This document shows positions 5,815-58,432 of a stretch of 64,000 nucleotides of DNA, piece after piece. This DNA is from Candidatus Curtissbacteria bacterium RIFCSPHIGHO2_12_FULL_41_17 (GTDB lineage Bacteria > Patescibacteriota > Microgenomatia > Curtissbacterales > GWA2-41-24). The notes beneath the pieces are model-generated. The model saw only the letters and a program-made list of their open reading frames with translations. It searched no databases and had not been told where the DNA came from. Within the stretch, counting starts at the first letter, position 1; each line of letters begins with the position of its first letter. Made by a program: the position numbers and the translations under genes. The stretch covers positions 529 through 64,528 of the forward strand of contig MFBL01000015.1 in NCBI GenBank assembly GCA_001774945.1, given 5' to 3'.

Positions 5815-6738
5815 ATGGATCCAATTTCTAAAGAGAAAACTCTAGAGAGATTAACCAAGGCCCAGAGTGTTTCTATAATTATTTCAGACAATTCTGGGTT
5901 TGACGGACTAGCCTCAGGTTTAGGCTTATATCTTTCACTGACCAAAATTGGTAAAAATATCTCTGTTTATGCCAAACATCCAACTGTTAGTGATGCTTCA
6001 AAACTTTACGCAGTAGACAAAATCGGCAGATCTGGCGAGGGAAAAAATTTAGTTATCAATATCGATAATGCAGTTAACACAGTTGATAAAGTTACTTATT
6101 TTTTAAATCACGATAAATTAAAAATAGTTATTCATCCACTGACCGGGACAAACGGGGCTTCAACTGAACAAATTTCATTTGAGCATGCACCTTCAAAATC
6201 GGATTTACGTTTTGTCATCGGGTTCAAAACGGCAGAAGAATTGAATAAAGAATTTGTTCATGAGCAAACTTTTAGTTCAGATTCATGGACAGTCAGCATT
6301 TCATTAGAAGAAATGAATCAAAAATTTGCTCATGCAAGCGTTGGCAACCCTCAAGCGACTAGTTTAAGCGAGTTAACAGCAAACCTCTTAAGAGATTTAG
6401 CCTTGCCTCTCGATGAGGATACAGCCTACAATTTATATACCGGTATCGCTCATTCTACCAATAATTTTGATGTTGCCAAATCAACACCGGCGACCCTCGA
6501 AATTGCCTCTTGGCTAATCAAATTTGGAGCAGGTAGAGCCAGTTTTGCGCAAAAATCACAACCCGCATACGAAACACCACTCTCTTCTCCCGTTGGCTCA
6601 TTTCCAGCAACCTCCGACAGCTTTAAGCAGGTAGACGAGGTTTCTATCGATCAGGTCGAATTTGAAAAATCTCAAAAAGAGTGGCTTAAACCGCCAAAAA
6701 TTTACAAGGGCTCTAAATCTTTTGACACTGAGCATTAG
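5815..6738 (+). CDS. DHH/NrnA-like protein with degenerate motifs (hypothetical)
   Basis: 307-aa ORF in the position often held by a DHH phosphoesterase after infB. SIIISDNSGFDGLASGLGLYLSL resembles DHH motifs I/II, but the catalytic Asp/His residues are not obvious. Confidence 0.4.
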   Translation: MDPISKEKTLERLTKAQSVSIIISDNSGFDGLASGLGLYLSLTKIGKNISVYAKHPTVSDASKLYAVDKIGRSGEGKNLVINIDNAVNTVDKVTYFLNHDKLKIVIHPLTGTNGASTEQISFEHAPSKSDLRFVIGFKTAEELNKEFVHEQTFSSDSWTVSISLEEMNQKFAHASVGNPQATSLSELTANLLRDLALPLDEDTAYNLYTGIAHSTNNFDVAKSTPATLEIASWLIKFGAGRASFAQKSQPAYETPLSSPVGSFPATSDSFKQVDEVSIDQVEFEKSQKEWLKPPKIYKGSKSFDTEH

Positions 6739-6759
6739 ATTAGATATACTGATTTTCTC

Positions 6760-7023
6760 ATGAGCGATACATCAAAAAAGCAAGTAATAGATAAATTTAA
6801 AACGCACGAGGGCGATACAGGATCTCCGGAAGTCCAGATTGCCTTACTTTCCCAAAGAATCGAGAAGGTTAAGGATCATTTAAAATCACACGGACATGAT
6901 AATCATTCACGAAGGGGTTTGCTTTCTATGATAAATAAACGTAGAAGACTTCTCCACTATTTAACGAGAAAGGCAGAGGATAGATATAAGGATATTATCG
7001 GTAAGCTTGGCTTACCCCAATAA
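6760..7023 (+). CDS. rpsO: 30S ribosomal protein S15
   Basis: GDTGSPEVQIALLSQRIEKVKDHLKSHGHDNHSRRGLLSMINKRRRLLHYL is a typical S15 sequence. Immediately upstream of pnp. Confidence 0.95.
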   Translation: MSDTSKKQVIDKFKTHEGDTGSPEVQIALLSQRIEKVKDHLKSHGHDNHSRRGLLSMINKRRRLLHYLTRKAEDRYKDIIGKLGLPQ

Positions 7024-7245
7024 TATCCTTGCGGTGCTCGCTCAGTAACACTGAGCTGCGCGCCTAAAAGATATTATTGGTAAGTTAGGACTGCCAAAAT
7101 AGAAATAAGCAGCGCTTGCTATTTATCTATTATTGACTTAAAATATAACAGGGAATTGGGTTGTTGGAAGTTGAATAGTTCGAATCAATTTTTTTGATTC
7201 TCACTATCCGATTTCTAACTCCCGTAAATTCTCCAAGAATTTATA

Positions 7246-9432
7246 ATGCAAAAAACAGTCCGTAAAGAAATTGATCTTGCTGGAAAGAAACTCATTTTAG
7301 AAAGCGGCGAACTTGCAACTCAGGCAAATGCCTCCGTTTTAGCAAGCTACGGAGAAACCGTACTTTTAGCTACTGCTGTTTCCAAAAAAGCACCACCTGA
7401 TATGGACTTTTTTCCGCTTGCCGTTGATTATGAGGAGAGGCTATATGCTGGCGGAAAAATATCCACCTCAAGATTTATCAAAAGAGAAGGAAGACCATCC
7501 GAGAAAGCTATTTTAACAGCAAGGTTGATAGACAGGTCTATAAGACCTCTTTTCCCAAAAGACTACCAAGCCGAGGTTCAGGTTGTAATAACCGTATTAT
7601 CATTCGATCAGGAAAACGATCCCGATATTGTTGCCCTAATTGCCGCTTCCTGTGCCCTTTCACTTTCCGACATTCCCTGGAACGGTCCGATATCTGGTCT
7701 TAGAATAGGCAGACAAAACGGAGGTTATATTTTAAACCCGACAGATGCTGAAAAAGATTTTTCCAGTCTTGATCTGATTTTGGCATCCAATAAAGAAGAA
7801 GTGGTAATGATTGAAGCCGGGGCAAATGAAGTCGATGAAGAGTCTGTTATTGGAGCAATTAAGTTTGGAATTGATCATGGAAAAAACGTTATTAAACTGA
7901 TTGAAGATTTAACCAAAGAAGCCGGGAGAGAAAAACAGAAATACGAAAGAGTAAGTCTTGGAGAAAATAAGGATAAAATAATTAGGGAATTTATCGCAAA
8001 AAACATTATTAGTGGTCTTGAAAAACCGGAAGTTTCTCAAGACGAAAATTGGTTTAGCTATCAATTAACAAAACTTGAAGAAGAATTTATCAAAGAAGAA
8101 GAGAAACAAATTACTTCAAAATGGCTAGCAGGCATTTTAGACGAGGCAGTTTCCGACTTCTTAAGGAAACGCATCTTGCAAGACAAAAAACGAATTGATG
8201 GCAGATCTCCGGACGATATCAGGCCAATAACCGCAAGAGTCGGTATTCTGCCAAGAACTCATGGATCCGGGCTTTTCCAAAGAGGTGATACTCAAGTCTT
8301 ATCGATTGTTACCTTAGCATCTCCCGCCTTGGAACAACTGATTGAAGGGATGACCGGCGAGGGGACCAAGAAGTATATGCATCATTACAATTTTCCGCCG
8401 TTTTCAACCGGCGAAGTAAGACGTCTTGGCCCGCCGGGAAGAAGAGAGATTGGCCACGGAGCTTTAGCGGAAAGGGCTCTCTTACCCGTTTTGCCTTCAC
8501 AAGAAGACTTTCCATACACACTGCGGGTAGTTTCAGAAGTCTTATCTTCTGCAGGTTCAACATCAATGGCTTCCGCTTGTGGTTCTACTTTGGCGTTAAT
8601 GGATGCTGGTGTTCCCATAAAAGAACCGGTGGCAGGAATTTCAATCGGCTTAATTTGCGACAAGAAAGACAGGTCAAAATATGTAACATTGGTAGACATA
8701 GCTTACCAGGAAGATTCCCAGGGAGATATGGATTTTAAAGTAGCCGGCACCAAAAACGGCATTACCGCTATTCAAATGGATATTAAGTTGGATGGAATTC
8801 CAACCAGTATTGCAAAAGAAGCGCTAATGAAGGCTAAAAAAGCAAGACTTTCTATTCTTGAAACTATCATAAAAACGATCCCTGCCGCTAGAGAAAAAAT
8901 TTCACCTCATGCTCCCACTGTTATTTTAATAAAGATAGACCCTGCAAAAATTGGCGCTGTTATTGGTTCCGGTGGGCGAACAATTAATAAAATCATCGCC
9001 GAGACGGGTGCGGCTATAGATATTGACGACCAGGGTATTGTAACGGTAAGCGGGAAAGACGTCCAAGCATGTCAGACTGCAGCCAAAATTATTGAAGGAA
9101 TTGTAAAAGAAGCCGAGGTCGGTGAAATTTATGAGGGTGCAGTCAAAAGAATTCTTCCATTTGGCGCCATGGTCGAAATATTGCCCGGCAAAGAAGGTCT
9201 AGTTCACATTTCCCAAATTGCCAACTATCGAGTTGCCAAAGTCGAAGACGAGTTGAAGATAGGACAAAAGGTAAAAGTTAGGGTAGCGGAAATTGATGAT
9301 CAGGGTAGGGTAAATCTCTCCATGAAGTTTCAAGACGAGAGGCAGGGTTTAGGAACCAAAAGCGATGATTTTCCCAAAAGGAATTTTAGAAAAAAATTCG
9401 ACTATGGACCAGGCAGAAAACATAAAAAGTAA
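7246..9432 (+). CDS. pnp: polyribonucleotide nucleotidyltransferase (PNPase)
   Basis: 728 aa with two RNase PH-like regions, a KH domain (GAVIGSGGRTINKI) and an S1 domain (GEIYEGAVKRILPFGAMVEILPGKEGLVHISQI). Confidence 0.95.
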   Translation: MQKTVRKEIDLAGKKLILESGELATQANASVLASYGETVLLATAVSKKAPPDMDFFPLAVDYEERLYAGGKISTSRFIKREGRPSEKAILTARLIDRSIRPLFPKDYQAEVQVVITVLSFDQENDPDIVALIAASCALSLSDIPWNGPISGLRIGRQNGGYILNPTDAEKDFSSLDLILASNKEEVVMIEAGANEVDEESVIGAIKFGIDHGKNVIKLIEDLTKEAGREKQKYERVSLGENKDKIIREFIAKNIISGLEKPEVSQDENWFSYQLTKLEEEFIKEEEKQITSKWLAGILDEAVSDFLRKRILQDKKRIDGRSPDDIRPITARVGILPRTHGSGLFQRGDTQVLSIVTLASPALEQLIEGMTGEGTKKYMHHYNFPPFSTGEVRRLGPPGRREIGHGALAERALLPVLPSQEDFPYTLRVVSEVLSSAGSTSMASACGSTLALMDAGVPIKEPVAGISIGLICDKKDRSKYVTLVDIAYQEDSQGDMDFKVAGTKNGITAIQMDIKLDGIPTSIAKEALMKAKKARLSILETIIKTIPAAREKISPHAPTVILIKIDPAKIGAVIGSGGRTINKIIAETGAAIDIDDQGIVTVSGKDVQACQTAAKIIEGIVKEAEVGEIYEGAVKRILPFGAMVEILPGKEGLVHISQIANYRVAKVEDELKIGQKVKVRVAEIDDQGRVNLSMKFQDERQGLGTKSDDFPKRNFRKKFDYGPGRKHKK

Positions 9433-11513: not shown

Positions 11514-11531
11514 AGTGACCTATTCGGAGGA

Positions 11532-11680
11532 GAGTTTATATTCGCTCGCAGAATACCATCGAGTCAGACTCGACGGATGAATGCGAGAGCGAATACATAC
11601 TTCCGAGGATTGGAAGTATTCTGCTCGCTCATGTAAACTTGAAGAACAATACCGAGGACTCTTAGTCCTCGGAAGTTTAT
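11532..11680 (+). repeat. ~150-nt multi-hairpin intergenic repeat, copy B
   Basis: Same element as 719-865 in inverted orientation. Hairpins lie at 11556-11576, 11598-11618 and 11652-11672, with enclosing stems TATTCGCTCGC/GCGAGAGCGAATA and TAAACTT/AAGTTTA. Confidence 0.85.
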
Positions 11681-11778
11681 AATTTTCTAAAACTCTCCGG
11701 AGAAAGGGTTAGTTAAAACTAACCCTATAGCATTTATAGTCCGCTTGATGTAAAATAAAATTAGCTTCTGGAAAAATT

Positions 11779-25718: not shown

Positions 25719-25971
25719 TTTTAATAAGATGACATATGAAAAAGAGGCAAAGTGGTGGGATACCCACGATTTGGGAGACTATTGGGACGAAATGGAGGAT
25801 GTTGAGATAGTGTTCGATCTCAAAAAGCCTCGCGATGAGACTCTTATTGTGCGTCTTCAAAAAGAACTCAAGGATAGACTAGAACGTGTAGCAAGAAGTC
25901 GAGGGTTAAACATGTCCACCCTAGCCCGCATGTGGCTGATTGAGAAACTTCGTCAGACTCAATCCAAATAA
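25690..25971 (+). CDS. brnA: BrnA-like CopG/RHH antitoxin
   Basis: EAKWWDTHDLGDYWDEMEDVEIVF, plus a C-terminal RHH-like segment IVRLQKELKDRLERVARSRGLNMSTLARMWLIEKL. The ATG at 25690 is preceded by AAGGAAG. Confidence 0.7.
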   Translation: MKKKKSKFPDFNKMTYEKEAKWWDTHDLGDYWDEMEDVEIVFDLKKPRDETLIVRLQKELKDRLERVARSRGLNMSTLARMWLIEKLRQTQSK

Positions 25972-26135
25972 GCAGAGCTTGCGGTCCTTGATTAAAGTCT
26001 GTGGGCCTAAAGTTCGAAAATCGTCGTTCGTCTTCGTAGCTTCCAGCGGAGTGGACCCAAACTATAGAAACTACTGATAGGCTAAGAACTTAGTTATTAG
26101 TTATAGGAATTCATTTTCAAAGATAGTATTATTAA

Positions 26136-27239
26136 TTGAATATCCCAGTGAATAAAATACTCCAAATCGGTCCACCCTTTATTATTATCGCCGCACTACT
26201 TTGGAGTCTTGACGGACTTTTAAGAAGAAGCCTTTTTGTGTTACCCCCGGCTCTTATTGTGTTTTGGGAACATGTTTTAGGTGCAGTTATATTAATACCA
26301 TTTGTCCTTTTTTTAGGTCTGAAACTAGGCAAAATGACCAAGAAAGAATGGCTGGCAATTGTTTTTGTAAGCCTTTTCTCTGGAGCCCTCGGAACTATTT
26401 TTTATACGGCGGCTCTTGGTAAAGTTAATTATATCCAGTTTTCGGTTGTAGCTATGCTGCAGCAGCTTCAGCCAATCTGGACCATTACAACCGCAGCTAT
26501 TATCCTAAAAGAAAAATTGACAGGCAATTTTTTAAGGTGGGCAGCATTGGCACTTATTGCTTCTTATTTTGTTACCTTTAGGGATTTAAAAGTTAATCTT
26601 GAAAGCGGCAGCCAAACAATAGTTGCTGCAGGATTTGCTCTTGCGGCTGGGATGATGTGGGGTTCATCAACCGCATTTTCCAAAGTGGTCTTAAAGCAAG
26701 TTTCGTTTATAACGGCCACTTTTTTAAGGTTTATGGCATTGGCACTTATTGCTTCTTATTTTGTTACCTTTAGGGATTTAAAAGTTAATCTTGAAAGCGG
26801 CAGCCAAACAATAGTTGCTGCAGGATTTGCTCTTGCGGCTGGGATGATGTGGGGTTCATCAACCGCATTTTCCAAAGTGGTCTTAAAGCAAGTTTCGTTT
26901 ATAACGGCCACTTTTTTAAGGTTTATGATAGCACCTATATTTGCCCTGCTTTTTTTAGTTGGTTCAAATAAGGGCAGCAGTCTTTTTGCAATCACATTGC
27001 CTCAGGCATTTACACTGCTTGTTATTACTCTCACAACCGGAATGGTTGCTCTTCTTATTTATTATTTTGGCTTAAAAAAAACACCGGCTAGAGTTAGCAC
27101 AATTTTAGAACTTGTCTGGCCTGCTTCGGCAATTTTTATTGACTATGTTTATTTCAAAAAAACTTTATCGACGACTCAGCTGTTGGGGGTTTTTGTATTA
27201 CTTTTTGCAATTTACCAAGTGTCTAAATTCAAAAAGTGA
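26136..27239 (+). CDS. EamA/DMT-family transporter carrying an internal 64-aa tandem duplication
   Basis: Polytopic membrane protein with EamA-like repeats. The segment ALALIASYFVTF...ATFLRFM occurs twice, identically. Confidence 0.8.
   Translation: MNIPVNKILQIGPPFIIIAALLWSLDGLLRRSLFVLPPALIVFWEHVLGAVILIPFVLFLGLKLGKMTKKEWLAIVFVSLFSGALGTIFYTAALGKVNYIQFSVVAMLQQLQPIWTITTAAIILKEKLTGNFLRWAALALIASYFVTFRDLKVNLESGSQTIVAAGFALAAGMMWGSSTAFSKVVLKQVSFITATFLRFMALALIASYFVTFRDLKVNLESGSQTIVAAGFALAAGMMWGSSTAFSKVVLKQVSFITATFLRFMIAPIFALLFLVGSNKGSSLFAITLPQAFTLLVITLTTGMVALLIYYFGLKKTPARVSTILELVWPASAIFIDYVYFKKTLSTTQLLGVFVLLFAIYQVSKFKK
26544..26927 (+). repeat. perfect 2 x 192-bp in-frame tandem duplication inside the DMT gene
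   Basis: 26544-26735 equals 26736-26927 base for base. The junctions share the microhomology TTTTTTAAGGT (26528, 26720, 26912). Confidence 0.9.
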
Positions 27240-35408: not shown

Positions 35409-35906
35409 ATGCCCAGAGCAGGAAAGGTAGAAAAAAAACAAATTGCTCCGGATCCCCTTTACCAAAGTTCGCTTGTTGCTAAACTAATCAATAAAGTAAT
35501 GGTCAGCGGCAATAAGTCTCTCGCCCAGAGAGTAGTTTATGATGCGCTCGAAAGTTTAAAATCTGGCGGGCAAGATCCAGTCAAAACCCTAGATAAGGCA
35601 GTTGAGAATATTACGCCAAGAATGGAGGTTAGACCAAGAAGGGTTGGCGGTGCATCTTATATGGTTCCCATGGAAGTCAGGGGATCAAGACGGCTTTCAT
35701 TGGCAATTTCATGGCTGGTTAATGCCGCCAGAAGCAGGAAAGCTTCGGACATTACTCCCAAACCTAAGAATAAGCCCTTAATTATTGCCAAGTTGTCCCA
35801 AGAAATACTGCAAGCATCAGAGAATACCGGCAAGGCAGTCGCCAAAAAAGACGAAATGCACCGCATAGCCGAAGCGAACAAAGCTTTCGCCCATTTCAGA
35901 TGGTAA
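35409..35906 (+). CDS. rpsG: 30S ribosomal protein S7
   Basis: MPRAGKVEKKQIAPDPLYQS.LVAKLINKVM..GNKS and ...ANKAFAHFRW. The ATG at 35409 is preceded by AAGGGAGC. The ORF-track start at 35223 lies inside rpsL. Confidence 0.95.
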   Translation: MPRAGKVEKKQIAPDPLYQSSLVAKLINKVMVSGNKSLAQRVVYDALESLKSGGQDPVKTLDKAVENITPRMEVRPRRVGGASYMVPMEVRGSRRLSLAISWLVNAARSRKASDITPKPKNKPLIIAKLSQEILQASENTGKAVAKKDEMHRIAEANKAFAHFRW

Positions 35907-36117
35907 GCCGGAGTTTACACTGAGCTTGTCGAAGTGCGCATTCCCGCTGGTAATGTGCTCAGCCTTGCGGTCCTCGTCCTTCGTTAAACTCAGGACTGCG
36001 GGCCTAAAAGCTTTCGCCCACTTCCGCTGGTAGCGAAATGTGGTTTGCCGCCTTGCGATAGCTCCGCACTACGCGCGTAGTAGCTATCTAAAGGCGTTTG
36101 CACATTTCCGGTGGTAA
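35907..36117 (+). repeat. array of displaced rpsG 3'-end copies separated by GC-rich palindromic inserts
   Basis: KAFAHFRW-stop is re-encoded at 36007-36033 and 36091-36117 with synonymous differences only. A degenerate copy (AHSRW-stop) lies at 35936-35953. Confidence 0.85.
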
Positions 36118-36122
36118 TTTCC

Positions 36123-37067
36123 CTACAACGAGAATAAATCTAGCACTTGCTTTTTTCCTGTCATGGCTAAATCAAATATCTTTTCCCGATCTTGGGAAAT
36201 TCTTGAGATGGGCATCTCGGAAGGAGCAATAATCCCAATATTTATTGAATCTCCATGCAATCCAATTAGCTCTGCCGCTCGCGAATATTGTTTATGTCTT
36301 GCTAACATAGCAGTTCTAAATTCGGAGGAAAACTTACGCATATATACACTTGTAAGTAAACGTTCTAATAAACTGGCCCCATTTGCTCGCTCGCCTACAG
36401 TATTATTCAAAACCACCAATATATCTGTACACCCTTCCTGTATTGCTAAATCGATTGGAATACCATTCCCTATAGAACCATCACTGTACTTTTTTCCATT
36501 AATACTTATGGTACGGTTATAAACAATAGGAAATGCCGAGGAAGCGATGACTACTTTGACAATATCACACTCCTCTTTCACATCTATAAACTCACTTTTG
36601 CCCGTTTGGGCATCCGTAACGACAATAAAAAAACTCGAACGGGATGACCTAATTGTTTCCTGATCAAGCGGTTTTGTCTTTCGCATTATGTGTTCAGCAT
36701 AATCAAGGTCTAAAACACGCCTTAGACGCCTAACATCGATGAATCTTCTGTCCACTAAATCTTCATGCCAAAGCGAAGCTCCTAACTCTGTCTGTTTAGC
36801 AAGAAAATAAGCAAGGTCAGCAGCCCCAGACGAAACACCGACAACAACATCAAAAGTGTCATGGAAACCCAATTGTTCTAGGCCAACAAGTACTCCGGCA
36901 CCAAATGCTCCACGCACCCCACCGCCACCCATTACTAATGCGGTTTTAATCCTCTCGTGTGTATTGTCACCTTGATCAAGCAGTCTCTTTTTCTCAAGTA
37001 AATTTCTCACGAGCGTTGAATTTCTCGCTGATTCACCTTCTAAAACTTTGGAGCGTAATCTTTCCAT
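36123..37067 (-). CDS. patatin-like phospholipase
   Basis: Oxyanion motif GGGGVRGAFGAGVL, nucleophile elbow GVSSGA (GxSxG), and the catalytic Asp context DGSIGNGIP. Confidence 0.85.
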   Translation of the reverse strand: MERLRSKVLEGESARNSTLVRNLLEKKRLLDQGDNTHERIKTALVMGGGGVRGAFGAGVLVGLEQLGFHDTFDVVVGVSSGAADLAYFLAKQTELGASLWHEDLVDRRFIDVRRLRRVLDLDYAEHIMRKTKPLDQETIRSSRSSFFIVVTDAQTGKSEFIDVKEECDIVKVVIASSAFPIVYNRTISINGKKYSDGSIGNGIPIDLAIQEGCTDILVVLNNTVGERANGASLLERLLTSVYMRKFSSEFRTAMLARHKQYSRAAELIGLHGDSINIGIIAPSEMPISRISQDREKIFDLAMTGKKQVLDLFSL

Positions 37068-37287
37068 GGCTAAAATTGTAGCAAAAATAGTTCTTTAAGA
37101 GAAAAATCTTCTCTCTTGCATACTCATTTAACTTAAGATATAATTCCCGACTAGTTTGTACTTATCTGCCGGTCTTCGACCCTGAGGGCTCAGACCCGAA
37201 TGGGCAGGCAGGCGCCTGTCAAACGCCTAATTTAGCTTCCGCCTGGCTAAATCCAAAGAAGAATTTTTATATTTGGGAAATGATATA

Positions 37288-37316
37288 TTGACTTTTGGCA
37301 GGGTTTTATTGATAAA
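37288..37316 (+). promoter_or_regulatory. candidate promoter TTGACT-17-GATAAA
   Basis: TTGACT at 37288-37293, a 17-nt spacer, and GATAAA at 37311-37316, upstream of the ORF at 37328. Confidence 0.3.
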
Positions 37317-37327
37317 AGAGTAAGATC

Positions 37328-37606
37328 ATGAAAATAATTTCATTATCAAAGGCACAAAAACTGAAAAGCCTTAGAAAAAAACTCACGGAGCTTGAGGAAG
37401 TTAAGCTAAAAGAGGCTTTGGCTAAGTATGGGGAAGCCTACCAGGAGTCAGGAGCGGCCTGGCAGGAAAATGCCGCCTGGGAGCTGGCAGACGAAGAAGT
37501 GTCGGTTATTCGGGCAATGATTTCGGAAATAAAAAGAGAAATCACCGGTTTGGAACATCCTCTTCCTACTACTTCCATCCCGCTCACTATTAAAAAACAA
37601 AAATAA
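37328..37606 (+). CDS. small coiled-coil protein (hypothetical)
   Basis: 92-aa ORF of helical, charged sequence. No family recognised. Confidence 0.45.
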   Translation: MKIISLSKAQKLKSLRKKLTELEEVKLKEALAKYGEAYQESGAAWQENAAWELADEEVSVIRAMISEIKREITGLEHPLPTTSIPLTIKKQK

Positions 37607-37833: not shown

Positions 37834-39975
37834 ATGGCCGAAAAACAAGCCAGACTTTATTCGCTGGACAGAATAAGAAATATAGGCATCATTGCTCATA
37901 TCGACGCGGGAAAAACGACCACTACCGAGAGAATCCTTTTTTACACAGGTAGGACCTATAAACTCGGAAATATCGATGAAGGCACCACCGTTACCGACTG
38001 GATGGCTCAGGAAAAAGAAAGGGGAATTACGATTGTATCGGCTGCCGTAACAACATTTTGGAAACCCAAAGATGGCCCGTTTGCCAACATTGACACACGT
38101 ATAAACATTATTGACACCCCGGGGCATGTCGATTTTACTGCCGAGGTTGAAAGATCACTGCGTGTTCTAGATGGAGGAGTCACCGTTCTTGATGCAGAAG
38201 AGGGGGTCCAGTCACAATCGGAAACAGTCTGGCGCCAAGCCGACAAATATAAAGTTCCCCGTATTTGTTTCGTTAATAAGATGGATAAAATCGGCGCAGA
38301 TTTTTTCGCAACGCTCTCCTCGATCCGCAAAAAATTACAGGCACCGGCAGTTGCCTACAATTTACCAATCGGCAAGGAAAATGATTTTAAGGGAGTTATC
38401 GATTTACTAACACAAAAGGCCTATATTTGGGAAGAAGAGGCTGTCAAAAAAGGAGGAATGGATTTTGTCAAGGTACCCATCCCAAGTGAATTGCTTGCTG
38501 AAACCGAAAAACATAGAGCCCACTTAATTGAAAAAATTGCAGAATGTGACGATAGTCTTGTGGAAAAATACCTTAAGGGTGAAGAATTGGGAATAGACGA
38601 ACTTAAATCAGCACTTCGACGTGCAGTCATCGAATATAAAATAGTTCCCGTGCTTGCAGGTTCCAGTCTACGCAATAAAGGTGTTCAAATGCTTCTTGAC
38701 GCAACTGTAGAATACTTACCTTCTCCTTTAGATATAGAAACGGTAGAGGGTATTAATCCTAAAACAGGTGAGAAGGAGATCCGCAAACAAGTAGTCGAAG
38801 CTCCATTTTGTGCCTTGGCATTTAAAGTCCAGATCGATCCGCATGTCGGTAAATTAAATTTCATCAGAATTTATTCGGGAACACTAAAATCCGGTACTTC
38901 TGTTTTGAATACGACAAAAAGGGAACATGAAAGAGTCGGCAGAATTTTACTAATGCATGCCAATACCAGAGAAGAGATTGCCGAAGCATACGCAGGAGAA
39001 ATTGTGGCAGTTGTCGGACTTAAATCAACCACCACAGGAGACACGCTCTGCGCTGAAAATTCTCCGATTATTTTAGAATCGATTTCGTTTCCGGACCCGG
39101 TCATTTCACTGGCAATTGAGCCAAGTACAAAGGCTGATCAGGAGAAACTTGGTTACGCTTTGGGCCGGCTTTCCGAGGAAGATCCGACGTTTAAGATTAA
39201 AGGTGATCCGGAAACCGGGCAAACAATTATTTCCGGAATGGGAGAACTGCATCTGGAAATCCTGGTTGACAGAATGAAGAGAGAGTTTGCAGTCGCTGCC
39301 AAAGTCGGCAGTCCGCAAGTTGCTTACAAGGAAACCATTAGAGAAACAGGCAGAGGTGAAGGTAAATATATTCGGCAGTCCGGTGGCAGAGGCCAATACG
39401 GGCACTGTTTTTTGAGGGTTGAGCCTAATCCTCGCGGTGAGGGTTATCAATTCGTTTCCGAGATTAGAGGTGGCGCTATTCCGCAAGAGTTTATTTCCTC
39501 AGTAGAAAAAGGAGTTCGCGAAAAAATGGAAACCGGGGTTTTAGCTGGATATCCGATGGTCGATATAAAGGTAGCAGTTTATGATGGTACTTATCATGAC
39601 GTTGACTCTTCCGATATTGCTTTTAAAATCGCCGGCTCTCTTGCTTTGGAAGAAGCCGTCAAAAATGCCAGTCTTGCGCTTTTGGAACCGATCATGAAAG
39701 TGGAAGTGACCATTCCCGAAGAATTCATGGGTGATGTAATTGGGGATTTATCTGCCAAGCGTGCTCAAATACTTTCAAGCGAACATCGGGCAAACAGCGT
39801 GATTATTACAGCCCTTGTGCCGCTTGCAGAGATGTCCGGCTATGTTACAACTCTTAGGTCTATGACTCAAGGGAGAGGATCAGCATATATGGAACCGTCA
39901 CATTACGAAGAAGTTCCCCAGAGTATAGCAGACAAAATCGTAGCAAGGGCCAAAGGTGAGGTAAAAGAAAGTTAG
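37834..39975 (+). CDS. fusA: elongation factor G
   Basis: [40 protein letters not shown]. The ATG at 37834 is preceded by GGAGG. The ORF-track TTG at 37819 would include the SD. Confidence 0.95.
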
Positions 39976-40024
39976 TAAAGAGTTTACCATGAACGAAGTC
40001 GCGTCAGACGCGACGAAGTGAAGG

Positions 40025-40072
40025 GCCGATAAAATAGTCGCAAAGGTTAAGGGTGAAACTAACCAAAGCTGA
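40025..40072 (+). repeat. displaced second copy of the fusA 3' end
   Basis: Encodes ADKIVAKVKGETNQS-stop, compared with the genuine end [15 protein letters not shown]-stop at 39928-39975. Confidence 0.8.
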
Positions 40073-40320: not shown

Positions 40321-41505
40321 ATGGCAGCAGAAAAATTTGAACGAACAAAACCACACGTAAATATTGGCACGATTGGCCATGTTGATCATGGTAAAACTAC
40401 GCTGACCAGTGCTATTACTCAGGTCCTATCCAAAAAAGGTCTGGCTCAGGCGAAATCCTTTGATCAGATAGATAATGCCCCGGAAGAGAAACAAAGAGGA
40501 ATTACTATTAATATTACTCATGTGGAGTACGAAACGGAAAAGCGTCACTATGCCCACATTGATGCCCCCGGCCATGCCGACTACATCAAAAACATGATTA
40601 CAGGTGCCGCCCAAATGGACGGTGCAATTCTGGTTGTAAGCGCTCCGGACGGGCCGATGCCGCAGACGAGAGAGCATGTTCTTTTGGCCAGACAGGTAAA
40701 CGTTCCGGCAATCGTAGTTTTTCTAAACAAAACGGATATGGTTCAGGATGCAGAACTTTTGGATCTTGTGGAACTTGAGGTGCGCGAACTTCTGGATAAA
40801 TATCAGTTTGATGGAAAAAATGCGACAATCATTCGCGGTTCGGCACTTAAAGCGATTGAAGGAGATGCACAAGCCGTTAAAGCGATTGAAGACTTAATGG
40901 CCGCAGTTGATGAAAAAATCCCCACTCCCGCAAGGGATTTAGACAAACCTTTCCTGATGCCGGTTGAAGATGTCTTTTCCATAAAAGGCCGAGGGACTGT
41001 TGTTACAGGCAGAGTTGAACGGGGCGTTATAAAAGTCAATGAGGAGATCGAAATTGTCGGAATTAGACCTACAAAAAAAACTATTGTAACAGGAGTAGAA
41101 ATGTTTAGAAAAGAGCTAGACCAGGGACAAGCCGGTGACAATATCGGCGTACTACTTCGAGGGATTGAAAAAGATGACGTTGAAAGAGGGCAGGTTTTGG
41201 CAAAGCCCGGCTCGACAACACCGCATACCGAATTCGAGGCAGAGGTGTATATCCTAACTAAAGAAGAAGGCGGACGACACACCCCCTTCTTTACCGGTTA
41301 TAGACCCCAGTTTTATATAAGAACGACCGATGTTACCGGAGAAGCAACTCTTCCCGAAGGAACAGAAATGGTTATGCCGGGAGACAATATTAAAATGAAA
41401 GTTAAACTTATCGAGCCGGTTGCTATGGAAGAAGGACTTAGATTTGCCATCCGCGAGGGTGGCCACACAGTAGGCGCCGGCGTAGTCAGCAAGATAATTG
41501 CGTAA
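40321..41505 (+). CDS. tuf: elongation factor Tu
   Basis: [41 protein letters not shown]. The start is placed at the canonical EF-Tu N-terminus. The alternative ATG at 40294 would add MNSTSNFDD. Confidence 0.95.
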
Positions 41506-41545
41506 GAGATTTGGGTCTCCTCAGAGCTTGCCAGAAGGCCGTAGG

Positions 41546-41576
41546 CCCTGAGCTTGCGAAGGGGGGATTTTTTTTG
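41546..41576 (+). terminator. candidate intrinsic terminator after tuf, built from a CCTGAGC..CGAAGGGG repeat
   Basis: CCCT..AGGGG stem followed by a T8 run (GGGGGGATTTTTTTT). Confidence 0.35.
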
Positions 41577-41936
41577 CTAGAATACCTTACTTTTGTCATT
41601 CTCGCGAAAGCGAGAATCCAGATTCTCAGTCAAGTCTTCGACCGTGAGTCCCAAAGAGACTCCGCTCAGACCGAATCGGCTGAGAATGACATGAGGGGGT
41701 CTTGGCGAAGGATTGTTCGAGCGAAGTCGAGAACTATTAAAGTATGTCAATAATAAGATTTTACTTCAAGCCTAACCGCTTAAGAATCTAACTTCTCAAC
41801 TCGACAATTCCGCTCGAAGATTATCAATTGCTGTCCGAAAGGAATTGTGATTTTGAATTTTGCCTGCCTGCCGGCAGGCAGGCACTTTAAATTTTACTTC
41901 TTGCGAAGCAAAACCTCGTAAGATCATTAAACGTCA

Positions 41937-46151: not shown

Positions 46152-46790
46152 GTGGGCCAAAAGGTTAATCCAATTGGATTTAGATTAGGAAACGTCTATA
46201 CTTGGAGCTCTAGATGGTTTGCTTCTGGTAAAATCTACTCCCAGTATCTTTTAGAAGATCGCCAACTTCGTCAGTTTCTAATGTTAAGACTAAAAAGTGC
46301 TGGTATTGCAAAAGTCGAAATTGAACGATCATTTGACAAAAGAACAATTATTGTTCATGTTTCCCGTCCCGGAATTGCTATTGGTCGCGGCGGAACAGGG
46401 ATCGAGCAGTTAAAAGAAGAATTGATTAAAAAATTTAAAATCCAAGACCCCAAAAAATTAGAAATAAAATTTGAAGAAATTAAAAATCCAGACTTGGATG
46501 CTTATCTTATTGCTGCAAACGTTGCAGACCAGCTGGAGAGAAGAATCCCATTTAGAAGAGTAATCAATCAAGCCTTAGAAAGGATAAAAAGATCCGGAGC
46601 AAAAGGAGCCAGAATATCAGTTTCAGGCAGGCTTGGCGGTTCAGAAATTGCCAGAACCGAAACTTTAAAATTTGGGGCGATTCCACTCCATACGATTCGG
46701 GCAAATATTGATTTTGCCAAAATAGATGCAAAAGTGCCCAAATCAGGAGTAGTAGGAGTTAAATCCTGGATTTATAAGGGCGAAACATAG
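46152..46790 (+). CDS. rpsC: 30S ribosomal protein S3
   Basis: GTG start. MGQKVNPIGFRLG..., KH-like IAIGRGGTGIEQLK, SGRLGGSEIARTE. Confidence 0.95.
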   Translation: MGQKVNPIGFRLGNVYTWSSRWFASGKIYSQYLLEDRQLRQFLMLRLKSAGIAKVEIERSFDKRTIIVHVSRPGIAIGRGGTGIEQLKEELIKKFKIQDPKKLEIKFEEIKNPDLDAYLIAANVADQLERRIPFRRVINQALERIKRSGAKGARISVSGRLGGSEIARTETLKFGAIPLHTIRANIDFAKIDAKVPKSGVVGVKSWIYKGET

Positions 46791-46958
46791 TTTCGTCCTT
46801 GCGAGAATTTCGCTTCTATTGAAATAGCTTTTTCAATAGAGCTCCATTCTTTAAAAAGCAACTATTATGAGAAGTAATAATTGGAAATTGGAAATTACTC
46901 GCCGCAAGCGAGTTTCGAGTCGAAATGGAAATTGGAAATTCCTCCGAAGGAGGGTTAT

Positions 46959-57754: not shown

Positions 57755-58161
57755 AAAAGGAAAATCAAAAATCGGAGATTATTTCGGCGCATGGGCGCAG
57801 AAAAGAAGCCGTGGCCAGAGTAATGCTTTATAAGGGAGATGGGCAAATTTTGGTAAATGGACAGGCAATTAATCAATATTTCCCAAGTAAAGTTGCCAAG
57901 AGTTTATGGCAAAAGCCTTTTGTTCTGACAAAATCCCAAAATGATTACTGGGCAACCATTAAAGTTTCAGGTTCTGGAAAGAGCGGGCAACTGCTAGCGG
58001 TGGTTCATGGTTTGTCGCGGGCATTATCTAAAGCTAACTTGGAATTTAGACCGATTCTTAAAAGAGCTGGACTTTTAACAAGAGATCCCCGGGTTAAGGA
58101 AAGACGTAAATACGGCCTTGCCCAGAAGGCTAGAAAAGGTAAGCAATCACCTAGGAGGTGA
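57751..58161 (+). CDS. rpsI: 30S ribosomal protein S9
   Basis: GRRKEAVARV.L..G.G.I.VNG, V.GSGKSGQ..A...GLSRAL, LTRDPR.KERRKYG...ARK..Q.SPRR. Confidence 0.95.
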   Translation: MKKENQKSEIISAHGRRKEAVARVMLYKGDGQILVNGQAINQYFPSKVAKSLWQKPFVLTKSQNDYWATIKVSGSGKSGQLLAVVHGLSRALSKANLEFRPILKRAGLLTRDPRVKERRKYGLAQKARKGKQSPRR

Positions 58162-58180
58162 TTGCCCTGAGTCTATCGAA

Positions 58181-58201
58181 GGGCAGTCGCCCAGGCGGTA
58201 G
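58181..58201 (+). repeat. displaced second copy of the rpsI 3' end
   Basis: GGGCAGTCGCCCAGGCGGTAG encodes GQSPRR-stop. The genuine end at 58138-58161 encodes GKQSPRR-stop. The two are separated by the hairpin GCCCTGAGTCTATCGAAGGGC. Confidence 0.75.
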
Positions 58202-58258
58202 CAAGTCCTCCCAAATTCGCACCTCGAACCGTGTACGAATAGTACTGAAATTTTCCTA

Positions 58259-58432
58259 TTATTGTTGAGGTTCCGATGGCGGCGTTTGGTTTTGGCTATT
58301 AGCCGGATTTTGAGGATTCATAAATTGGCCATCACCAGATTGCGTTGGTTGATTAGCTGATTCGCTAGGTGATGTTGGCGGCGGTTGCTCTTTTTTCCCA
58401 AAAAGATTTTTGACAAGATCCAGAAAACCCAT
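58259..58432 (-). CDS. small P/Q-rich hypothetical protein
   Basis: 57-aa ORF below the track threshold, MGFLDLVKNLFGKKEQPPPTSPSESANQPTQSGDGQFMNPQNPANSQNQTPPSEPQQ. Low complexity, so coding status is uncertain. Confidence 0.3.
   Translation of the reverse strand: MGFLDLVKNLFGKKEQPPPTSPSESANQPTQSGDGQFMNPQNPANSQNQTPPSEPQQ

Follow-up and report, generated by a model that had tools for sequence, protein, structure and literature searches.

A doubled rpsO gene end in a Candidatus Curtissbacteria bacterium and a candidate family of miniature tail cassettes in Patescibacteria

The 64-kb stretch of DNA analyzed here (the window) is from a Candidatus Curtissbacteria bacterium, a member of the Patescibacteria, and the closest homologues of its ribosomal protein S15 are those of Candidatus Curtissbacteria. 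The gene for S15, rpsO, is read on the + strand (as are all cassette features below) at 6760..7023 in the list of open reading frames (ORFs; Pfam Ribosomal_S15, E 2e-33), and its 3' end is present twice, with the sequence and coordinates described in an earlier note on this DNA. The final 36 nt of the gene as it is now translated (tail 1, AAGGATATTATCGGTAAGCTTGGCTTACCCCAATAA, KDIIGKLGLPQ-stop, 6988..7023) are followed by a 43-nt GC-rich hairpin insert (7024..7066; 58% GC compared with 39.8% for the window) and then by a second copy (tail 2, AAAGATATTATTGGTAAGTTAGGACTGCCAAAATAG, KDIIGKLGLPK-stop, 7067..7102), which is shifted 79 nt from the first, is therefore out of frame, and is not translated. 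By direct reading, an element that we call T' (ATAATATCCTT, 7020..7030) overlaps the stop codon of tail 1 and is a perfect reverse complement of the first 11 nt of that tail (AAGGATATTAT); it is followed by a GC dinucleotide (7031-7032), a predicted stem-loop with a G-C closing pair (H2, 7033-7064), and a TA dinucleotide (7065-7066), after which comes the Lys codon of tail 2. Based on folding and on an alignment (A1), we group GC, H2, and TA as a type-I core (7031..7066). A promoter-like site for pnp (TTGCTA, 17 nt, TAAAAT; 7116..7144), recognized by comparison with four of the loci examined in relatives (L002, L107, L117, and L121; L numbers are our handles), lies just past tail 2.

The downstream copy is the resident end of rpsO, and positions 6988-7066 are an insertion. 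In six relatives or lineages (L001, L002, the P0004 lineage comprising L107-L116, the P0025 lineage comprising L117-L119, L120, and L121), a single rpsO end stands directly before the pnp promoter (CTTGCTAT, 17 nt, TATAAT); in the window the conserved promoter and leader of pnp come after tail 2, collinear with these cassette-free relatives, and tail 2 encodes the family consensus C terminus (...GKLGLPK). It is on these two observations that the assignment rests, and they bear out the earlier expectation that copy 2 should match the native end of relatives that lack the insert. A scan of a genome collection with the whole S15 protein, in which universal S15 motifs dominated, contributed 2 relatives among the 80 matches listed. 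The proposal that the mobile part is the hairpin only does not hold: the inserted unit is a 79-nt cassette (6988..7066) made up of the replacement tail, T', GC, the core hairpin, and TA, so that what is now translated as the end of S15 is cassette-derived and the resident tail is displaced.

The two tails differ at 10 of 36 nt, as previously counted; 9 of the differences fall in sense codons and a single residue is changed, whereas one residue change or fewer was obtained in none of 20,000 random placements of 9 substitutions (P < 5e-5). Because rpsO bodies are 70-83% identical in nucleotide sequence across the lineages of the relatives, 10 differences in 36 nt is an ordinary between-species distance. 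The tails nearest to tail 1 are those of L121 (6 differences) and copy A2 of L081 (7), compared with 10 to tail 2, and those nearest to tail 2 are found in L117 (5 differences) and in copy A1 of L081 (6). The synonymous character of the divergence and its between-species size both point to two S15 tails of independent evolution and not to a slippage duplicate, in agreement with the earlier note.

The insert with its flanks folds much more strongly than shuffled sequences (z = -5.8), and two pairings are predicted. In one, tail 1 and T' form a hairpin (H1, 6988-7030; -11.3 kcal/mol, z = -6.1) that encloses the stop codon; tail 2, in contrast, forms no H1-like hairpin (-3.3 kcal/mol). In the other, T' pairs with the start of tail 2 and extends the core hairpin (again z = -5.8). 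Across the cassettes described below, H1 hairpins have z scores of -6 to -9 and displaced tails do not fold. At positions where neighboring tails differ, T' is complementary to its own upstream tail in 28 cases and to the downstream tail in 5, so T' belongs to its own unit. Folds of T'-GC-core-TA-tail consist of an outer helix of 5-11 bp, a 2x2 internal loop formed by GC and TA, an inner helix with G-C closure, and a variable apex of 4-40 nt. The T' arms are long in the units of S7 (encoded by rpsG), where as many as 21 nt of the tail are copied and a small bulge recurs at one fixed place; between lineages they show compensatory changes. In the empty site of L121 (1073-1108), the S15 tail itself holds a hairpin (GGTAAAC-TTG-GTTTACC), to which window positions 7000-7017 in tail 1 (GGTAAGC-TTG-GCTTACC) correspond with a compensatory double change; an internal tail hairpin is thus also present in a cassette-free lineage.

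The rpsO unit has counterparts at rpsG, rpsC, and brnA, so that cassettes of this kind recur at four genes of the window, and the earlier note was right that the hairpin repeat is dispersed over these genes; it always adjoins a Lys codon. These cassettes have the same architecture. A cassette is about 60-105 bp long and begins with a replacement version of the final 4-11 codons of the target gene, from a Lys codon (AAR) to the stop; T', which repeats the first 7-21 nt of the cassette's own tail in inverted form, lies at or just past the stop and is followed by GC, a GC-rich stem-loop H2 with G-C closure, and TA, and tail plus T' are predicted to pair into an H1 that encloses the stop codon. 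The unit sits exactly 5' of the resident tail's Lys codon, so the gene reads into the tail of the cassette, and the resident tail is shifted out of frame, decays in time, and comes last where cassettes are stacked. Inserts between tails measure 22-100 nt, an array of n tails contains n-1 cores, and the duplicated segment, always Lys codon to stop, is 15 nt long in rpsC, 27 nt in rpsG, 27 nt in brnA, and 36 nt in rpsO. Within this one genome, the cores at rpsO, rpsG, and brnA share TTGCGGTsCTyG...CTGyGssCCTAAA (alignment A1), whereas their outer arms are gene specific, and every type-I junction found without a search pattern reads YTT-GC on the left and TA-AAR on the right. A strict structural scan recovers the true elements and gives about 2 weak matches per shuffled window.

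At rpsG (35880..36117), the tail is present three and a half times with two type-I cores. The translated tail (KAFAHFRW-stop, 35880-35906) is followed by an insert (35907-35935), a decayed tail (35936-35953), T' (35954-35966), GC, a type-I core (35969-36004), and TA, then by a second complete tail (36007-36033), T' (36034-36054), GC, a core (36057-36088), and TA, and finally by the resident tail (36091-36117); all differences among the complete tails are synonymous. The antitoxin gene brnA (CopG type) has a single unit (25945..26039), with a translated tail (KLRQTQSK-stop, 25945-25971), T' (25972-25980), GC, a type-I core (25983-26007), TA, and a decayed displaced tail (26010-26039) that is readable as a tail only once one missing base is restored; judged by the C termini of the BrnA family, the translated tail is the normal one. 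The site is empty in L143. The single unit at rpsC, the S3 gene (46776..46877), has a TTA variant of the right junction and consists of the tail KGET-stop and T', which form a perfect H1 hairpin (46776-46800), GC, a core (46803-46851), TA, and a decayed displaced tail (46854-46877). In L141 the same cassette is followed by an intact second tail (AAAGGAGAA..., KGEADV-stop), which identifies AAAGGAGAA... as the true displaced rpsC tail, a tail that in the window is decayed; the rpsC site of L142 is empty. We also considered whether KSNYYEK-stop, past the rpsC core, might be the displaced S3 tail and KGET-stop the foreign one, and rejected this because homologues end in KGE(S/T)-stop.

In related Patescibacteria, arrays reach four tails. 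The closest relative with a long rpsO contig (L081) carries three full S15 tails and a truncated fourth with three cores, each core lying between YTT-GC and CTA/AAAG (the slash marks the junction). The cassette architecture is also seen at rpsG in L137 and at rpsC in L141. Distal tails are decayed or truncated in L090, L098, L102, and L081, as they are at brnA and rpsC, which fits the resident tail being the last. In metagenomes, a scan for CTA followed by any sequence encoding KAFAH(F/Y)RW, and for nothing else, returned 19 loci (14 distinct), and all 19 are rpsG ends that have two to four tails and the cassette architecture. Scans of viral contigs for the S7 junction and for the type-I core gave no matches, and with the S15 junction pattern only unrelated phage proteins containing LKDIIGKL were returned.

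The import-like divergence of neighboring tails extends well beyond rpsO, and it is highly significant in every pair that came to light independently of the search pattern. Synonymous-only divergence at P < 5e-5 is likewise found among copies A1, A2, and A3 of L081, among the window rpsG tails (B1, B2, and B3), between the rpoC tails of L093, and between the S7 tails of the window and L137; for tuf in the window compared with L122, P = 5e-5, and for the window copies of rpsI and fusA, P is 9e-4 and 4e-3, respectively. Downstream copies that are saturated at synonymous sites without residue change cannot have drifted in place: either the tails were joined after diverging or, alternatively, all of them have been repeatedly exposed to selection. 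S7 tails are on average 4.6 of 24 nt apart within an array and 4.8 of 24 nt apart between unrelated arrays, and hence there is no excess of young in situ duplicates; the neighboring tails of the L090 array are nearly identical, with 1 difference.

Comparison of close strains identifies two recent imports. Over 2.3 kb upstream, L137 (Logan SRR2090157) matches the window at 99.66% identity; it encodes an identical S7 protein, and its rpsG differs from that of the window at 8 positions, all synonymous and all in the final 40 nt. Its array, one unit with a ATAGCTCC...AGCTAT core, is unrelated to that of the window (compare 35860-36120), and the genes downstream of rpsG differ as well, with no patatin gene. 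In L122-L124, which are 99.9% identical to the window, the tuf tail (VVSKIIA-stop) has 6 recoded nt, among which is a switch of a Ser codon between AGC and TCC, and the 3' untranslated region (UTR) is unrelated to that of the window up to the T-run of the terminator (window 41485-41561). Tail and UTR thus look as if they had been exchanged together as an allele, with no duplication involved. Between strains, only rpsG (L137) and tuf vary.

We favor, at a probability of about one in two, the reading that the rpsO duplication is an inserted miniature, ORF-less, non-autonomous tail cassette moved by structure-specific recombination at CTA/AAR; the tail-cassette family to which it belongs occurs in Candidatus Curtissbacteria and in Patescibacteria related to them. 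Cassettes would then be inserted or exchanged when folded DNA, probably in single-stranded form, recombines at CTA/AAR, and one may imagine, purely by conjecture, an enzyme acting in trans that resembles either the integrase of integrons or an HUH transposase of the type associated with IS200 or REP (repetitive extragenic palindrome) elements. T' would pair with the start of the target's tail and thereby provide gene-specific homing, and homologous recombination among relatives likely adds to the spread. Tails, T' arms, and cores would re-assort between lineages, with the consequence that the many differences between neighboring tails are synonymous and the encoded residues hardly ever change. 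A bolder form of the proposal, which we regard as tentative and rather doubtful, is that the cassettes are programmable homing DNA in which T' acts as a guide arm that directs a structure-specific cut exactly 5' of the Lys codon; the recoded replacement tail would make insertion into essential genes harmless, and arrays of interchangeable tails would behave like an integron with gene ends as cassettes.

A number of observations weigh against mobility by structure-specific recombination at CTA/AAR. Neither a recombinase, an integrase, a transposase, nor a reverse transcriptase is encoded in the 64-kb window (in this domain scan, unscanned ORFs read as genes for ribosomal proteins or translation from their translation and position), and no recombinase-type enzyme was noticed in the loci fetched. 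Folding energies and G-U counts show no strand asymmetry, so they give no support to the idea that only a single strand is active. Between lineages, T' arms re-assort independently of cores, which a single crossover point does not explain. Tails are also duplicated without a GC...TA core, at rpsI and fusA of the window, rpoC of L093, and rplB of L142, which means that the core is not required for tail duplication. The recoded tract of L137 starts about 15 nt upstream of the Lys codon, which fits homologous recombination better than a site-specific crossover at Lys. Within the species, the rpsO cassette is fixed in all contigs compared, and neither an excised circle nor a precise excision was seen for rpsO. 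It should be noted, too, that the metagenomic S7 set was preselected for an intact tail after CTA, so that this set alone is no evidence for intact downstream tails.

The main rival, which we consider unlikely, invokes no dedicated element: hairpin-provoked template switching or fold-back synthesis would create T' and the tail duplication in situ, and frequent recombination with the alleles of diverged relatives, with the conserved gene and the tail as homology arms, would swap the gene-proximal tail and disseminate the arrangement. Several of the points just listed (the absence of strand asymmetry, the core-free duplications, and the L137 tract that begins upstream of Lys) speak for it, as do the replacement breakpoints at rpsG (L137) and tuf within the final 20-40 nt, the near-identical tails of L090, and the fact that T' is copied, as from a template, from the tail beside it and shows compensatory changes; RecA, RecX, and RuvX, along with FtsK, are encoded in the window. 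What it leaves unaccounted for is the shared core consensus at unrelated genes and the invariant YTT-GC and TA-AAR junctions; moreover, n tails with n-1 cores fits insertion rather than unequal crossing-over, and young, similar tail pairs are not in excess. Decidedly unlikely in our estimate is a classical att duplication, in which a double-strand-specific tyrosine or serine integrase inserted a larger element carrying the rpsO 3' end and left an att-only remnant similar to a cis-mobilizable element (CIME), which related elements could mobilize in trans, the stacked tails being accretions. Here the attL/attR interpretation of the earlier note stands in part: direct repeats of the gene 3' end do flank the insert, the proximal copy looks foreign and element-derived, arrays resemble tandem accretion, and ICEs (integrative and conjugative elements) and IMEs (integrative and mobilizable elements) have been documented at the 3' ends of rpsI, rpmG, and rplL (PMC5357655, PMC4701971, PMC5704250). 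The tyrosine-recombinase mechanism proposed with it is unproven, given that no integrase is encoded in the window and that one core family with gene-specific arms is hard to reconcile with a protein-recognized double-stranded attP/attB site; a protein recognizing a single att core would not produce the same core family at rpsO, rpsG, rpsC, and brnA next to unrelated tails. No larger, ORF-bearing version occurs among about 20 distinct arrays at rpsO, rpsG, and rpsC, the duplicated length depends on the gene (15 to 36 nt, always Lys codon to stop), and T' is not predicted.

There is a slim chance that the elements are selected cis-acting RNAs, that is, a translation-coupled switch or a block to 3' exonucleases in highly expressed operons, in which the ribosome would open H1 and T' would re-pair with the next tail, extending H2, with the duplicate kept as a partner. 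Both alternative pairings do fold well, tail and T' co-vary, and the elements lie in transcribed spacers of ribosomal operons, here just upstream of pnp. On the other hand, G-U pairs are not enriched on the sense strand (29, compared with 35 on the antisense strand), and the bottom strand is the more stable in 15 of 22 cases; pairing needs the first 7-20 nt of a tail, yet whole downstream tails with their stops are intact in examples found without bias, and the source of recoded tails and of arrays of four tails is left unaccounted for. No terminator-like U tract is present and no Rfam family matches: no terminator-like site was found in 6700-7300, and an Rfam search of the window gave tRNA only. 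An intrinsic terminator or known RNA family was rejected on these grounds, as was a diversity-generating retroelement, given that the ten differences at rpsO, rather than being adenine specific, are spread over all four bases and are synonymous; the window contains no reverse transcriptase. That the tandem arrangement is an assembly artefact, either two strain alleles of the rpsO end joined in tandem or a palindrome-induced chimera, is very unlikely, with next to no probability left to it. The source is a metagenome-assembled genome, and repeats and hairpins do trouble assemblers, but the rpsO region is the same in both other assemblies compared (JGI and ENA), beyond which 22 further contigs with the exact S15 protein were listed as similar places; the exact S15 and S7 proteins of the window each occur in >20 contigs (JGI, ENA, and Logan assemblies). 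Nine more contigs, which stem from different samples and assemblers (JGI, ENA MEGAHIT k141, ENA scaffolds, and Logan), carry an identical rpsG array over the reach of each contig, the architecture is found in about 20 other lineages, and no native sequence has the insert as an allele.

Among known systems, the structurally closest analogue of the tail cassettes is the integron attC cassette array, and in function they resemble ICE/IME integration at gene 3' ends; they may accordingly be viewed as a variant of site-specific integrative or cassette elements. Like integron cassettes, they are short coding units that lack a promoter and stand in tandem, and behind each unit is an imperfect hairpin. 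This hairpin is built of an outer and an inner helix with a small internal loop of unpaired bases between them, its terminal part varies widely, and conservation is confined to a few bases at its foot; the outer arm is complementary to the unit's own coding start, as would be expected for a circularizing unit, and the resident tail is last, as if new units entered beside the gene. Unlike attC sites, they conserve YTT-GC...TA-AAR rather than RYYYAAC...GTTRRRY and have no detected strand bias or extrahelical bases. There is no intI, attI, or Pc in the window and no Phage_integrase domain in its scanned ORFs; moreover, the cargo is 4-11 codons of the target's own end, not a gene, and the arrays are spread over many housekeeping genes rather than confined to one platform.

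Streptococcal ICEs, IMEs, and prophages integrate at gene 3' ends, and non-autonomous CIMEs are described with them (PMC5357655, PMC4701971, PMC5704250); targeting of the 3' ends of rpsI, rpmG, and rplL by ICEs and IMEs, on which the earlier note had drawn, is in the literature (PMC5357655, PMC4701971). With these elements the tail cassettes share a supplied replacement 3' end that keeps the target gene intact, an old end that persists as the far-side direct repeat, ribosomal protein genes as typical targets, and tandem accretion; tail 1 is nearer to the tails of other lineages, as an element-derived copy would be, and tail 2 is collinear with empty sites. They differ in that the inserts are 22-100 nt long and gene free, with no integrase found (in the window and about 20 arrays), in the combination of one core family with gene-specific arms and duplicated segments that are unrelated beyond the initial AAR, and in the T' of every cassette.

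REP elements with their REP-associated tyrosine transposases (RAYTs) and the ends of IS200/IS605 elements, with the miniature forms derived from them, are single-strand hairpin elements cut by HUH Y1 enzymes (PMC3733652, PMC2817692, PMC6006769). The tail cassettes, too, are short GC-rich extragenic hairpins with few conserved foot bases just downstream of genes; there are several per 64 kb and no target duplication of fixed length. They lack GTAG/CGTC, their feet being TTGC-G and C-TAAA when the top strand is read and TTTAG-G when the bottom strand is read, their stem sequences, unlike those of REPs, are not conserved within the genome, and no RAYT/TnpA or Y1 HUH gene was seen within the window. 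In IS608, bases beside the hairpin pair with the cleavage site, and the bottom strand echoes this logic here: the cassette follows, on its 3' side, a CTTT-like tetranucleotide, and its own last bases are YTT. No REP or IS200/IS605 derivative is known to bring along a copy of a neighboring gene's end. In fungal mitochondria (e.g., atp6 of Allomyces), mobile endonuclease ORFs bring in a foreign C-terminal segment and displace the resident one; there, as here, a foreign equivalent tail is in frame and the resident tail is an untranslated downstream remnant, but that system involves a homing-endonuclease ORF in a mitochondrial genome, whereas the tail cassettes are hairpins with no ORF. Unlike in miniature inverted-repeat transposable elements, the inverted repeats formed by tail and T' are gene specific and the duplicated length (15-36 nt) is not fixed. 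Full-text literature searches for gene-end duplications with hairpins, in Patescibacteria or elsewhere, found no description, and there is a substantial chance that the mechanism is new.

If the cassettes are mobile, selfish DNA could colonize the most conserved, essential genes of very small genomes harmlessly, each insert carrying a synonymously recoded spare gene end. The combination of a gene-specific inverted arm with a shared core hints that targets are chosen through DNA pairing instead of recognition by a protein; choice through DNA pairing is what programmable insertion tools are built on. As recombination landmarks, the arrays lie at rpsO, rpsG, rpsC, rpsI, fusA, tuf, and rpoC, all of them common phylogenetic markers, and they document frequent short-segment DNA exchange among uncultured bacteria of diverged lineages. 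Gene calling, strain typing, and phylogenies based on marker genes can be misled by displaced pseudo-tails and by 3' ends that are mosaic and horizontally exchanged.

Details of the core-free duplications are as follows. At the rpsI end of the window (58138-58262), the S9 tail (GKQSPRR-stop, 58138-58161) has a perfect 10-bp hairpin across its stop, and a second, synonymously recoded copy ((G)QSPRR-stop) lies at 58181-58201; a structured element of about 60 nt (GTCCTCCCAAATTCGCACCTCGA...) that follows the rpsI copies is also present between rpsG tails in L093. At the fusA end (39931-40072), the tail of EF-G is duplicated, and the second copy (DKIVAKVKGETNQS-stop) has 5 residue differences, so that this duplication is older; L142 (1692-4115) has the same fusA tail duplication. 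A motif from the fusA inserts (AGTTTACmCTGAGCTTGTCGAAGkGC) recurs at 35913-35938 in the rpsG array of the window, and a shorter form (CCTGAGCTTGCGAAGGGG) occurs in the tuf 3' UTR at about 41562-41600. In L093 (1980-2230, minus strand), the RpoC tail is duplicated with 12 of 14 codons recoded and one residue changed; the 37-nt insert contains ATATCAG...CTGATAT, and the translated tail has extra small hairpins (e.g., CGCCCGAAAGGGCG). In the rplB-rpsS spacer of L142 (9140-9252), the rplB tail AGGAGGAAATGA, which also looks like the ribosome-binding site of rpsS, is repeated as AGGAGGAAATAA past a long hairpin (ATATCAGAGGAGCGACATTGCGAGGGCGAAGTCTCGCAAGGCGACCTGCTGATAT), and the duplication seems to preserve the start signals of the downstream gene.

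A few further features were noted at and around these loci. The region between rpsG and fusA in the window (36123-37606) holds a gene for a patatin-like phospholipase (minus strand) and a 92-aa ORF; rpsG and fusA usually adjoin each other, and the spacer appears to be a variable island, its content being different in L137 and lacking in L096, L097, and L101. L127, a contig of the same species, joins the window at 46836, diverges inside the rpsC core, and from 823 on continues as an array resembling clustered regularly interspaced short palindromic repeats, with 47-nt repeats (GTTGTTTATCAATATGTCAAAGATACAAAATGAAAGCAAATCACAAC) and spacers of about 30 nt; the junction reflects either a true rearrangement or a chimera made in assembly. 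A repeat about 125 nt long with predicted structure (TTTATATTCGCTCGCAGAAyACCrTCGAGTCwGACTCGACGGATGAATGCGArAGCGAATACATACTT...), with no Rfam match, is present in two intergenic copies of opposite orientation (about 707-865 and about 11514-11690) and could be an uncharacterized small RNA or a mobile repeat. Finally, two tandem 192-nt units that are 96% identical (26520-26903) lie inside a gene for an EamA-family transporter (26136-27239).

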